This document shows, piece after piece, positions 26,778-31,141 of a DNA stretch of 64,000 nucleotides (positions within the stretch are counted from its first letter, which is position 1; every line of letters starts with the position of its first letter). Position numbers and translations under genes: made by a program. Origin of the DNA: Thalassobaculaceae bacterium (lineage in GTDB: Bacteria > Pseudomonadota > Alphaproteobacteria > Thalassobaculales > Thalassobaculaceae); the NCBI GenBank assembly GCA_965228875.1, contig OZ245843.1, forward strand, positions 3,950,616 to 4,014,615, in the 5' to 3' direction. The notes below the pieces were generated by a model. The model had not been told where the DNA came from and ran no database searches. It saw nothing but the letters and a program-made list of their open reading frames with translations.

Positions 26778-27803
26778 TCACGCCGCCTTCTTCAGGTGCT
26801 TGGCCACCAGTTCCTCGGCGATCTGCACCGCGTTCAGGGCGGCACCCTTGCGCAGATTGTCGCTGACGCACCAGAACACCAGGCCGTTCTTCACCGTCGG
26901 GTCGACGCGGATGCGGCTGATATAGACCGGATCCTCGCCGGCGCTCTCGACCGGGGTGACGTAGCCCTCGTCGGCGCGATGGTCGACGATCACCAGGCCG
27001 GGGAAGCCCTGCATCGCCTGCCGCGCGCTGTCGGCGTCGATCGGCTTTTTCGTCTCGATGAACACCGCCTCGGAATGGCCGATGAACACCGGCACGCGCA
27101 CGCAGGTGGCGACCACGTCGATGTCCGGGTCGAGGATCTTCTTGGTCTCGACCGTCATCTTCCACTCCTCCTTGGTGAACCCGTCCTCCATGAACTTGTC
27201 GATGTGGGGGATCACGTTGAAGGCGATCTGCTTGGTGAAATTCTCGCGCTCGATCGGGTCGTTCACGTAGACCGAGCGGGTCTGGTTGAACAGCTCGTCC
27301 ATGCCCTCCTTGCCGGCGCCGGAGACCGACTGGTAGGTCGAGACGACCACCCGCTTGATGCCGAAGGCGTCATGCAGCGGCTTCAGCGCCACCACCATCT
27401 GCGCGGTCGAGCAGTTCGGGTTGGCGATGATGTTCTTCTTGCCGTACTTCGCGACCGCGCCCGGATTGACCTCCGGGACGATCAGCGGCACGTCCGGGTC
27501 CATGCGGAAGGCGGAGCTGTTGTCGATCACGACGCAGCCGGCCTGCCCGGCCTTGGGCGCGTACTCCTTGGAGACGTCGCCGCCGGCGGAGAACAGGGCG
27601 ATGTCGGCTCGTGCGAAATCGAACTCGGCCAGGTTCTGAACGGTCAGCGTGCCGTCCTCGCCGTAGGAGACCTCGTTTCCGGCGGAGCGCCCGGAGGCCA
27701 GCGCGATGACCTCGTCGGCCGGGAAGTTGCGCTCGGCCAGGGTGGTCAGCATCTCGCGTCCCACCGCACCCGTGGCGCCGACGACGGCAACTCTGTAGCC
27801 CAT
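26778..27803 (-). CDS. asd: aspartate-semialdehyde dehydrogenase
   Basis: VVGATGAVG, ANPNCST, STYQSVSGAG and DNLRKGAALNAVQIAE. Confidence 0.97.
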   Translation of the reverse strand: MGYRVAVVGATGAVGREMLTTLAERNFPADEVIALASGRSAGNEVSYGEDGTLTVQNLAEFDFARADIALFSAGGDVSKEYAPKAGQAGCVVIDNSSAFRMDPDVPLIVPEVNPGAVAKYGKKNIIANPNCSTAQMVVALKPLHDAFGIKRVVVSTYQSVSGAGKEGMDELFNQTRSVYVNDPIERENFTKQIAFNVIPHIDKFMEDGFTKEEWKMTVETKKILDPDIDVVATCVRVPVFIGHSEAVFIETKKPIDADSARQAMQGFPGLVIVDHRADEGYVTPVESAGEDPVYISRIRVDPTVKNGLVFWCVSDNLRKGAALNAVQIAEELVAKHLKKAA

Positions 27804-27911
27804 TTCTCTCTCCTCTCGCGATGTGCCCGATCTGGGGGCACGCGACGTCCGGCCGGGGTTTACGCCCCCCGGTCCTGCATCGCAAGCACGCAAACGGAAG
27901 GGCGGAAGCCG

Positions 27912-28025
27912 CTAGCCGGTGGTCTTGGTGGTGGTTTTCGGGGTGGTGAACGCGCAGACGCCGGCGCCGGCCGCCACGGGGGCGGGGCGCAGGAGAAGGT
28001 CAGCCATGGAAGCCGTCGCGTTCAT
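27912..28025 (-). CDS. putative asd leader peptide (Thr/Lys-rich, 37 aa; alternative ATG at 28007)
   Basis: Ends ACC ACC CCG AAA ACC ACC ACC AAG ACC ACC GGC TAG, 108 nt before the asd start, followed by hairpins. Confidence 0.65.
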   Translation of the reverse strand: MNATASMADLLLRPAPVAAGAGVCAFTTPKTTTKTTG

Positions 28026-28123
28026 GGGCAGGACGTATAGGGGAAAACGCGGCTGTGGGGAAGAGCACTTCTGACGGCGACCGGCGCGCGCTAGGGTTGA
28101 GGAGGGAACGCCGGGGGGAAGGG

Positions 28124-31100
28124 ATGAAGCGACTGCGGATCGGGCCTTTCGAGATCGGCCTTGCGAATGTGGGGCTCGCCCTGGGCAAAGAGACGGTCCA
28201 GTTCGCCGCCGAAGATCTGGTCGGCGGCGGGGCATCGACCATTACCAAGATCGTCCTCTCCCAGGTGACCCTCGCCGAAGGAGAAACGGAAACCCCCGAG
28301 TCCCGGGCCACGCTCTGCGTGAACCGCGCGCTGGTCCATGCGGCGATGGAAGTGCTTACCGAGGCGGATCGGCACAGGGACCGCCGGCGGGCGATCAATC
28401 GCAGGGTGGAGCCGACGATCATCACCCTCGATGATCTTGACCCCGAGTTTCTGGAGAAACCCGAAGGCATACCCGTTCGGGAGACGCTTGAACGCGGAGT
28501 CAGCAACGAGTTGACCGAGGCCGGGTTCTCCCCGGAACAGGTGCTGGCGTTCGTCAGTCCATTGCAGGACAGGTTCATCATCGCCCTGCGCGATCTTTGG
28601 AAGCGGATGAAGCTCGATGGCCACACGCCCCGCGCTCTGGGGGTCACACCCGGCCTCGGCCCTGCGGCGGAGCGGGCAAAGCTCTGGAACGAAGCGGAGA
28701 AGGCGCTCATCGCCTGGCCGGACGACCCGGCGGCGAACACCCTGTTCCTTGATCGCGAGCTGTTCCCGAAGCCGTTCTCGATCCGCGACATCCATGTCGA
28801 CCTGCGCGCCTACGAGGTCCTGAAAGACGCGGGCGGCGGCATGGACGCGGACGTTGTCGCGCGGTCCGGCGGCGAAGAGCGCAGGCGCCGCGCGCGGCGG
28901 GTCGAGATCAAGGATGCGGTGACCGACTGGATGAACGACCCGGACGGCGCGCCGATCCGCTTCGTCAGCGGCGGGCCGGGATGCGGGAAATCGACCTTCG
29001 CGCGGATGCTGGCGGCGCGGGTGGCGGCCGATCCCGCCTGGCGGGTGCGGTGCGTCGAGCTGCACATGGTCGGGAAAGGCGATCTCTGGCAGTGGATCAC
29101 GGATACGACGGCGAAATCCCGGACACAGGCACGGGCCATGGTCGAGAGCGCCCTCGCCCTCGCCCGTCGCCGGATGCTGCTGATCCTCGACGGCCTCGAC
29201 GAACTGGCGACGCGCGGTCCGAAGGGGATGGAGCGGGCGGCGGAGATCGCGGGCGAGATCTCGGACCGCCTCCTGGCGTTCAAGGCGGACGGCTCCCACG
29301 TTCGGGCCCTGTTCCTCGGCCGCGATCTTGCGGTGCAGCGGGGTGAGGTCGCGGCCCTCATCCGGGCACGCACGCTGCACGTCATGCCGCTGCTGCCGTC
29401 GGACGATCTGATCCGGAGCATGGAGTGGGAGGGAGACCAGCCGGACGATGAGTTGGTCGGTCTCTTGAACCGGAAGTTCGACGAGGTTGGCGTCGTCACG
29501 CCGCGCATCCCCGAGGCATCGCCGGCGGGATCCGCCGTCCGCGAGTTGCTGGCCACGCCGGTCACCCAGGCGCTGCTCGTGCGCTATCTGGCGGCGCATC
29601 CGCAGGCCCAGGATGGCGACGGCGGTCCCGGCCTGCTCGAGACGCTGGATCGGGCAACCCTCTATTACGATGTGCTGAAGGATACCCATGCCCGGTCCTG
29701 GGGCCGGCTGTCCGGGACGGAGTTGAACGCGCTGCCGCAGTTCGGGCCGTTCCTGCGCTTCATGGAGGATGTGGCGCTGGCCTGTTTCCAGGACTCGACG
29801 CGCGCCGCCACGGTGGAGGCCATCGCCAGGCTCCTGCCGGACCAGGCGTTGCGCAGCGATCTGCGCCTGGCGGCGCGGAAGAAGGACATCGTCCCGGAGC
29901 AGGCGCTTCTGGCCTTCCATGTGCGGTTCCGGGGCGATGTCGGGGACCGGCGGATCGAATTCACCCACAAGTCCTTCGCCGACTACCTGCTGGCGCGGCG
30001 GTTGCTGCGGGCGGCGCGGGAGGGGGTGGGGCTCGGCGCATGGGGGGCGCTGTTCGGGGCGTTCCGGATCGAGATGGCGGTGGTCGACTTCCTGCGGCCC
30101 GAGGCGGCGCGGCAGCGGGCCGCCGGCGAGACCGGTACCGGCAAGACTGGTTCCGGCGAGCGTGCTACCGGCGAGCTCGCGGCGGGGGATGCGCGCGACC
30201 ATCTGGCCGGCCTGCTGGCAGAGGCGGTCGGGCCGGGATTTCCGATCGCCTCCCTGGCGGCGGCGATGGGCGACGCACCGGGGACGGGCGATCTCGCCCG
30301 AAGGGTCGCCGATGGCGAGGTCGCGCTGCTGGCGACGCTGGACGCGGTGTGCCGGGCACTCGACACCGAAGAGGAACCCGCCCGCGCCACCATCGACTGG
30401 CCGGACGAATGGGCCGCGTGGCGGATGATCGGGAGGCAGCCGCCGCCATCCGACGATTTCGACGTTCTGATGCGTCGCAAGCCGCCGACCGATCCGTTCC
30501 GCGAATGTCTGGGGCGATTGATCCATGTCATGGACAGGACGGTGTCTCGGGATATGGAGTCTTCAATCGCCGGGGCCGCCGAGGAAATGCCCCGGCCCCG
30601 GCGATTGCGGCTGAAAAACGCGAACCTTCTGGGCGCGAACCTTCGTGGCGCGGACCTTCAGCGCGCGGACCTTGAGCGCGCGGACCTTCAGCGCGCGGAC
30701 CTTGAGCGCGCGGACCTTCAGCGCGCGAACCTTCTGGGCGCGGACCTTCGTGGCGCGGTCCTTCAGCGCGCGAACCTTCGGGACGCGGACCTTCGTGGCG
30801 CGGACCTTCAGCGCGCGAACCTTCTGGGCGCGGACCTTCGTGGCGCGGTCCTTCAGCGCGCGAACCTTCGGGACGCGGACCTTCGGGACGCGGACCTTGA
30901 GCGCGCGGACCTTGAGGGCGCGGTCCTTCAGCGCGCGAACCTTCTGGGCGCGGACCTTGAGGGCGCGGACCTTGAGGGCGCGGACCTTCGGGACGCGGAC
31001 CTTCGTGGCGCGGTCCTTCAGCGCGCGAACCTTCGGGGGGTGAAGGGGGGGGAGGGCGAAACCGGGATCCGCGCCGGCCGCAACCTCGAGCACGCGATCC

Positions 31101-31141
31101 TGACGCCGGCGCTGCGGGAGTCCCTCGGCCCCGAGCCGTAG
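28124..31141 (+). CDS. NACHT/STAND-like P-loop NTPase with C-terminal pentapeptide repeats
   Basis: IRDIHVDL pre-NTPase motif, Walker A GGPGCGKS, Walker B LLILDGLDE, EFTHKSFADYL winged-helix motif and 28 A(D/N/V)Lxx repeats. Confidence 0.85.
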   Translation: MKRLRIGPFEIGLANVGLALGKETVQFAAEDLVGGGASTITKIVLSQVTLAEGETETPESRATLCVNRALVHAAMEVLTEADRHRDRRRAINRRVEPTIITLDDLDPEFLEKPEGIPVRETLERGVSNELTEAGFSPEQVLAFVSPLQDRFIIALRDLWKRMKLDGHTPRALGVTPGLGPAAERAKLWNEAEKALIAWPDDPAANTLFLDRELFPKPFSIRDIHVDLRAYEVLKDAGGGMDADVVARSGGEERRRRARRVEIKDAVTDWMNDPDGAPIRFVSGGPGCGKSTFARMLAARVAADPAWRVRCVELHMVGKGDLWQWITDTTAKSRTQARAMVESALALARRRMLLILDGLDELATRGPKGMERAAEIAGEISDRLLAFKADGSHVRALFLGRDLAVQRGEVAALIRARTLHVMPLLPSDDLIRSMEWEGDQPDDELVGLLNRKFDEVGVVTPRIPEASPAGSAVRELLATPVTQALLVRYLAAHPQAQDGDGGPGLLETLDRATLYYDVLKDTHARSWGRLSGTELNALPQFGPFLRFMEDVALACFQDSTRAATVEAIARLLPDQALRSDLRLAARKKDIVPEQALLAFHVRFRGDVGDRRIEFTHKSFADYLLARRLLRAAREGVGLGAWGALFGAFRIEMAVVDFLRPEAARQRAAGETGTGKTGSGERATGELAAGDARDHLAGLLAEAVGPGFPIASLAAAMGDAPGTGDLARRVADGEVALLATLDAVCRALDTEEEPARATIDWPDEWAAWRMIGRQPPPSDDFDVLMRRKPPTDPFRECLGRLIHVMDRTVSRDMESSIAGAAEEMPRPRRLRLKNANLLGANLRGADLQRADLERADLQRADLERADLQRANLLGADLRGAVLQRANLRDADLRGADLQRANLLGADLRGAVLQRANLRDADLRDADLERADLEGAVLQRANLLGADLEGADLEGADLRDADLRGAVLQRANLRGVKGGEGETGIRAGRNLEHAILTPALRESLGPEP
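30620..31039 (+). repeat. 28 x 15-bp coding tandem repeat (pentapeptide repeat)
   Basis: Every unit reads GCG-(GAC/AAC/GTC)-CTT-NNN-NNN. Confidence 0.95.

Follow-up and report, generated by a model that had tools for sequence, protein, structure and literature searches.

How alphaproteobacteria tune the common aspartate pathway to threonine and lysine is poorly described, and the region upstream of asd in a genome of the family Thalassobaculaceae raises the question whether a short ORF read by the ribosome can do so at this gene. Asd is a shared step on the route to Thr and Lys, and a widespread leader reading both together at asd would fill that gap. In the window (the whole stretch of DNA that was analysed, 64,000 nt), asd occupies 26778..27803 on the minus strand and encodes an aspartate-semialdehyde dehydrogenase of 341 aa with the Pfam domains PF01118 and PF02774, the only match to asd in this genome. 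An ORF of 37 aa (27912..28025, minus strand) lies upstream. An earlier note on this DNA had put it forward as a candidate Thr/Lys-sensing leader peptide followed by two GC hairpins, and the parts that it described are all present: the ORF with seven ACC and two Lys codons, the distance of 108 nt from its stop to the asd ATG (27803), the hairpins at 27872-27853 and 27841-27823, a GAGGAG at 27815-27810 and a TATACG 8 nt before the leader ATG.

The control-codon run (27918..27947, minus strand) reads T T P K T T T K T T; the ten codons before the final Gly comprise seven Thr (all ACC), two Lys (AAA and AAG) and one Pro, and the run is C-rich and G-poor. The locus has a short upstream ORF with control codons for the products of the downstream pathway, as is expected of an attenuator. 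A crude gene caller gave 3,808 genes. When the stop codons located 30-250 nt upstream of these are scored by the number of Thr and Lys codons among the last 12, this ORF alone among 14,557 stops reaches 9, the runner-up score being 7, before 2 genes, and no second comparable Thr/Lys leader is found among the called genes of this genome. The leader peptide has no match in a Pfam search, and the locus has none in Rfam at E values up to 5, RF00506 and RF00168 included. The lysine riboswitch (RF00168) is absent from the locus and from the rest of the genome, and in eight relatives the best score for RF00506 is 27.8 bits against a cut-off of 55. With its different codons, no U-tract and no match to the model, the asd leader is not a member of RF00506.

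Among the family genomes, 58 have an asd match, and in 50 of these, that of the window included, the region upstream of asd was examined. The leader ORF is found in 19 of the 50, spread over five genera, and is absent from the other 31, so the conserved Thr/Lys run that the earlier note had proposed to look for in relatives is borne out in 19/50. The ORF is open in all 19 leader loci; its length in the 18 loci with a start ranges from 34 to 45 aa and changes in whole codons, and the reading frame survives indels in 18/18. The N-terminal part of the peptide is variable and the C-terminal Thr/Lys run is retained in the 19 loci. The last 12 codons of these leaders hold 116 Thr and 40 Lys out of 228, with Ile at only 3/228; AAA accounts for 17 of the 40 Lys codons, compared with 2.6 per 1000 codons in this genome. 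A codon run conserved while the rest of the peptide drifts, the pattern expected of an attenuator, is present here as well. Within the genus, the region behind the stop is near-invariant and the 5' half of the ORF drifts. In an Asd tree of 50 rows, the 19 leader genomes and two small genomes fall in one clade (100/98), with the root placed at midpoint and monophyly judged without a one-clade test. The two small genomes (L024 and L029) belong to the same genus, are AT-rich and 1.5 Mb in size, and are nested in the leader clade; they keep asd and lack the leader, which fits the regulatory loss expected in reduced genomes. Another family member, L079, carries a second, distant asd copy (G028:C6:12800-13580) with its own upstream ORF of 30 aa. 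The first half of this ORF contains Met, Thr, Ile and Lys codons and a GC hairpin lies behind the ORF, which makes it a leader of a different type.

The leader is not confined to this family. In other families of the class, it is found in one of 19 genomes. The architecture in Thalassobaculum litoreum (L082) is identical in type to that of the window, a similarity that puts the window in this lineage. A pattern scan of the genome collection, in which the pattern required Thr codons and not Lys codons, gave at least 120 stretches, many of which are from Mesorhizobium and hence not independent. At least seven Thr and Lys codons in the last 12 are present in 113 of the 120 matches listed. Lys makes up 344 of the 1440 end codons of these matches though the pattern did not select for it, while Ile, Met and Asn account for 5, 35 and 3; one match, L155, resembles a chance match and was left in these counts. 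Other genera among the matches listed are Aminobacter, Pelagibacterium, Roseibium, Pseudovibrio, Cohaesibacter, Dongia, Aestuariispira, Pacificispira and Magnetovibrio. In Mesorhizobium, Roseibium, Pelagibacterium, Magnetovibrio and others, a similar leader lies before asd. Judged from sequence, the Thr/Lys leader of asd is real and widespread. A classical terminator-type version, with a Thr/Lys leader and then a hairpin with a U-tract, occurs in Dongia, Aestuariispira and their kin (L090, L128, L133, L176).

A published counterpart is probably SEP5 of Sinorhizobium meliloti 2011, likened here by its description. In SEP5, six Thr and three Lys codons lie towards the 3' end of a short ORF, for which Ribo-seq and Western blot have demonstrated translation (Hadjeras et al. 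2023, PMC10117765). It lies in the 5' UTR of an 'aspartate dehydrogenase-encoding gene', which by this wording would be asd, and is described as a possible leader peptide; the accessible text limits its conservation to Sinorhizobium and offers no mechanism (PMC10117765). The accessible text of a 2026 survey of S. meliloti uORFs (PMC13285730) makes no mention of SEP5, threonine or lysine, and a literature search, which covered largely papers free of subscription, found no mechanistic study of an asd leader.

The spacer between the leader stop and asd can be divided into segments, all on the minus strand. Segment 1 (27905..27920) consists of the last codon, the stop and the following bases; its predicted partner in the ON fold is the 3' arm of hairpin 1, and a ribosome at the stop would cover it. 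Segment 2 (27895..27904; CGCCCTTCCG, from stop+8) is C/U-rich and can pair with the G-run of hairpin 1 (ON) or, as predicted, with the Shine-Dalgarno (SD) region (OFF). Hairpin 1 (27853..27872), formed by segments 3 and 4, has a 6-bp GC stem and an 8-nt loop and would be the core of the OFF fold. A pre-SD hairpin (27816..27846; TCGCG/CGCGA), with GTGCCC/GGGCAC inserted at 27841-27823, is predicted in the ON state and in transcripts from an internal promoter (P2, below), with the SD left free. The SD itself, GAGGAG (27810..27815), is 6 nt before the ATG, and its AGGAG is invariant in 18/18 loci. The G-run and C-run of hairpin 1 are likewise invariant in all 18 aligned loci. The helix between segment 2 and the G-run has 8 bp in 17 of the 19 loci and 7 of 8 in the other 2. 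Its start is at stop+6 to +8 in every locus, and lineages differ in its three outer pairs. Hairpin 2 (GTGCCC), which the earlier note had also described, fared differently: among nine leader-bearing loci of the genus, one other has a different insert at this site and seven have none, and it was rejected as a conserved regulatory part, being a strain-level insert in this genome.

The choice between these helices is predicted to depend on the position of the ribosome. The ribosome was modelled by masking to 10 nt beyond the A site, a value derived from the 16-nt footprint given in the legend of Fig. S2 of PMC10117765, and the transcript was cut just past hairpin 1. Over the 19 loci, the G-run pairs with segment 2 at a mean of 0.99 when the A site is on the run, at -8 to -6. 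With the ribosome at the stop, this value falls to 0.00, a loss that is partly built in by the masking, and 3:4 pairing averages 0.72; position-dependent helix choice is predicted in 19/19 loci. In the window, the stalled state has the ON fold as its minimum-energy fold for six of the seven transcript lengths that run up to the SD, and the stop state for none of them. The stalled state gives a long ON hairpin and the small pre-SD hairpin; in the stop state, the OFF stem grows outward from hairpin 1. In a consensus fold of 18 sequences, GGAG is the partner of segment 2 in 17-18 of them. In masked folds of the kind that the earlier note had suggested, all 19 loci are predicted to switch, but the footprint must reach at least 10 nt beyond the A site (18/18 sequences switch at +10 and +13, 6/18 at +7 and 3/18 at +4) and 14-33 of 200 shuffled controls per sequence (7-17%) also switch.

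Folding of the full spacer at equilibrium is less informative. Whatever the position of the ribosome, it yields a single long stem that ends on the SD, and in this genus, once the SD has been transcribed, the OFF fold prevails at equilibrium in both ribosome positions. The energy needed to open the ribosome-binding site is 6.3-12.9 kcal/mol, compared with a median of 9.9 for 273 genes of this 68% GC genome. Such folds alone prove nothing, because the stem ignores the position of the ribosome and the opening energy is ordinary; equilibrium opening energy was rejected as a sign of SD occlusion since ordinary genes give like values.

Comparison between lineages supports some of the helices. When partners are exchanged among six representatives, the 2:3 helix is best with the partner of its own lineage (2 of 720 permutations), as is the whole ON duplex including segment 1 (10 of 720). 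Lineage matching is not seen for the stem between segment 2 and the SD (179 of 720) or for the middle OFF stem (117 of 720). Column by column in a MAFFT alignment, the 2:3 helix has no compensatory pair, and 74 of 500 shuffles reach its paired share; its register slips along the G-run in this test.

This organization resembles some known leaders and departs from them in several respects. In thrL, control codons for products of the aspartate pathway are followed by mutually exclusive 2:3 and 3:4 helices that are set by ribosome position. The asd leader shares with E. coli thrL (RF00506) the control-codon run and, by prediction, the exclusive helices; it differs in reading Thr/Lys rather than Thr/Ile, in preceding asd rather than thrABC, in having no U-tract, in its leaderless-type start and in its missing Rfam match. 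The regulatory logic is that of textbook attenuation, in a leader absent from Rfam. A Cys-codon leader described in 2005 (PMC1262725) also has its control run near the stop and no U-tract terminator, and Rho was proposed to act there; no conserved hairpins are reported in its accessible text, whereas hairpin 3:4 and its rival helix are conserved at asd. The trpL/rnTrpL of S. meliloti is, as here, an alphaproteobacterial leaderless leader ORF before an amino-acid biosynthesis gene (PMC10117765), but it has Trp codons and 14 aa and is a transcription attenuator with a released sRNA.

Taken at a probability of roughly 0.55, the leader would be a ribosome-mediated attenuator in which a stalled ribosome lets the RNA behind the stop unzip hairpin 1 and leaves the SD free, while a ribosome at the stop allows a long stem to form over the SD. 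Transcription from an upstream promoter, P1, would give a leaderless transcript, to judge from the conserved layout. At low levels of charged tRNA-Thr or tRNA-Lys, the ribosome would stall 5-11 codons before the stop, as the codon run and known attenuators suggest. In the computed folds of this stalled state, segments 1 and 2 pair with 3 and 4 to give one long hairpin, the pre-SD hairpin forms and the SD is single-stranded; this ON fold would be a kinetic state. A ribosome that reaches the stop is computed to cover segment 1 and the outer end of segment 2, so that 3:4 forms and extends outward; the freed segment 2 would then pair with the SD and turn asd translation off, and Rho polarity may come after SD occlusion. 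Transcripts from P2, which are without segments 1-3, would provide a basal, unregulated level of asd. Two observations favour SD occlusion as the output: the SD is where the OFF stem ends, and a T-rich tract (6 of 8) is rare, being found in only 4 of the 120 spacers of the pattern matches listed. Under this model, more Asd would be made when Thr or Lys runs short.

The same sensor and the same 2:3 versus 3:4 switch could instead have a transcriptional output, hairpin 3:4 pausing or terminating the polymerase without a U-tract or Rho loading on the C-rich run. This is a serious rival, though less likely than SD occlusion, since the switch in the computed folds peaks just when hairpin 3:4 emerges and, in this genus, fades within about 8 more nt. 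The 80 nt around the Thr/Lys run hold 33 C and 17 G, and rho is encoded in the genome. Also in its favour, only 40 of the 330 GC hairpins at gene ends in this genome have at least five T behind them, a raw count taken without a background set. The four T-rich spacers mentioned above, all of other lineages, and the homologous hairpin of a relative without leader (L020), which is followed by TTTTT, point the same way. In the window itself, however, the absence of a U-tract that the earlier note had recorded is confirmed, with one T in the 8 nt following hairpin 1 and no terminator-like site, and the OFF stem ends exactly at the SD. RNA contigs of relatives also pass from the leader into asd, although this is no measure of read-through.

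P1 is a predicted sigma70-type promoter (28034..28062, minus strand) with a -35 element TTCCCC (28062-28057), a spacing of 17 nt and a -10 element TATACG (28039-28034). A TAT-N3 is present 6-8 nt before an in-frame ATG in 18/18 leader loci with full upstream sequence, where the ATG was selected by the same spacing rule, and a pyrimidine-rich hexamer is present 17 nt above it in these 18 loci. This layout fits a leaderless or near-leaderless transcript and lends support, with the ATG so chosen, to the leaderless-type start put forward in the earlier note. RNA data for relatives comprise 24 runs, all found as assembled contigs, six of which were examined. In five runs from two studies, a relative about 90-93% alike has contigs that span the spacer and break off 11-62 nt into the ORF; the contig of the sixth stops at 27902. 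The contig ends near the ORF start are a weak hint of a start at P1. A DNA origin of the contigs is possible because long contigs also span convergent genes and those on the leuB side extend into the intergenic stretch. In four genera, the first bases of the ORF (28025-28017, minus strand) are the complement of those just upstream of the Thr run (27956-27948) and pair with them in the folds, a pairing that could shut a leaderless start after one round of translation; it is not claimed as a real element, the swap test giving 86 of 720, which is not significant.

A second promoter, P2, is predicted inside the spacer (27857..27885, minus strand), with a -35 element TTGCGA (27885-27880), a spacing of 17 nt and a -10 element TAAACC (27862-27857), and it overlaps hairpin 1. 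The motif TTG-N20-TA with this 17-nt spacing occurs 217 times in upstream regions of the genome, compared with 65-133 times at the other spacings from 13 to 21. A scan of the locus with E. coli-consensus promoters and terminators gives no site; the blank promoter result says little because alphaproteobacterial promoters keep TTG and mostly lack the T at -7 (PMC8407463). Of the 19 leader loci, 15 have a P2-like site, and so do 15 of the 31 family loci without leader, in the corresponding position; the spacer sequence varies and the 17-nt spacing is fixed. Because the site is also present in these relatives without the leader, asd probably has a second, internal promoter. Genomes with P2 but no leader fall on several branches outside the leader clade of the midpoint-rooted Asd tree, and P2 is for this reason probably older than the leader in this family, the order of events being inferred. 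Hyphomicrobiales spacers differ from that of the window in sequence and are without a P2-like site. The earlier note had named an asd start downstream of the ORF as evidence against a leader, and the predicted P2, lying inside hairpin 1, goes part of the way towards this; if P2 is strong, the leader governs only part of asd output.

In an unlikely extension, the leader was added upstream of the older promoter and its post-stop segment was fitted to the G-run of that promoter; in the boldest form, polymerase pausing at the hairpin gates the promoter beneath, so that the ribosome sensing Thr and Lys controls initiation at the second promoter. If true, the same 30 bases would be a sigma70 promoter in DNA and a switch hairpin in RNA, and this lineage-specific overlap is what might surprise a specialist. 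A related rival, even less likely, is that asd is expressed mainly from P2, with the leader minor, or with polymerase from P1 paused at 3:4 and blocking P2 until a stalled ribosome removes the hairpin. The frequency of P2-like sites with and without the leader and their fixed spacing agree with such control, as does the predicted P2 start at the foot of hairpin 3:4. It is opposed by the near-invariance of the post-stop region in the genus while the 5' half of the ORF drifts, and by the four leader loci without P2 hexamers that still have the ORF, segment 2 and the hairpin. Because these four keep all three elements, they suggest that hairpin 1 matters as RNA.

The codons ACC, AAA and AAG are all ANN codons, which are read by t6A-bearing tRNAs. 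The ORF might accordingly report some other signal, such as translation stress, ribosome-targeting drugs or t6A37 status, or the peptide or leader RNA might act in trans as rnTrpL and peTrpL do, trans roles of the S. meliloti trp leader being cited in PMC10117765. This is very unlikely, since the remaining ANN codons are scarce at the leader ends (the Ile and Asn counts of the pattern matches listed), the peptide outside the Thr/Lys run is not conserved and the downstream asd is the common step to Thr and Lys. That the ORF arose by chance in C/A-rich intergenic DNA is hardly credible given its top score genome-wide, its frame kept through indels in 18/18 loci, its conserved start layout and its occurrence in several orders.

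In the window, a gene for a NACHT/AAA-type NTPase with about eight C-terminal pentapeptide repeats (28124-31141, plus strand) is inserted between leuB and the asd leader, divergent from P1, and is not found in 10 other genomes of the genus, where leuB is usually 150-520 nt before the leader. Most same-genus genomes (L002-L007, L009) have a REP-like short palindromic repeat, with about 70-90 nt between its arms, in the leuB-leader gap. Elsewhere in the genome (G000:C1 near 332,904, plus strand), an ORF of 13 codons, nine of them Val, Ile or Leu codons, is located 214 nt upstream of a called gene and is possibly another leader or a chance ORF.
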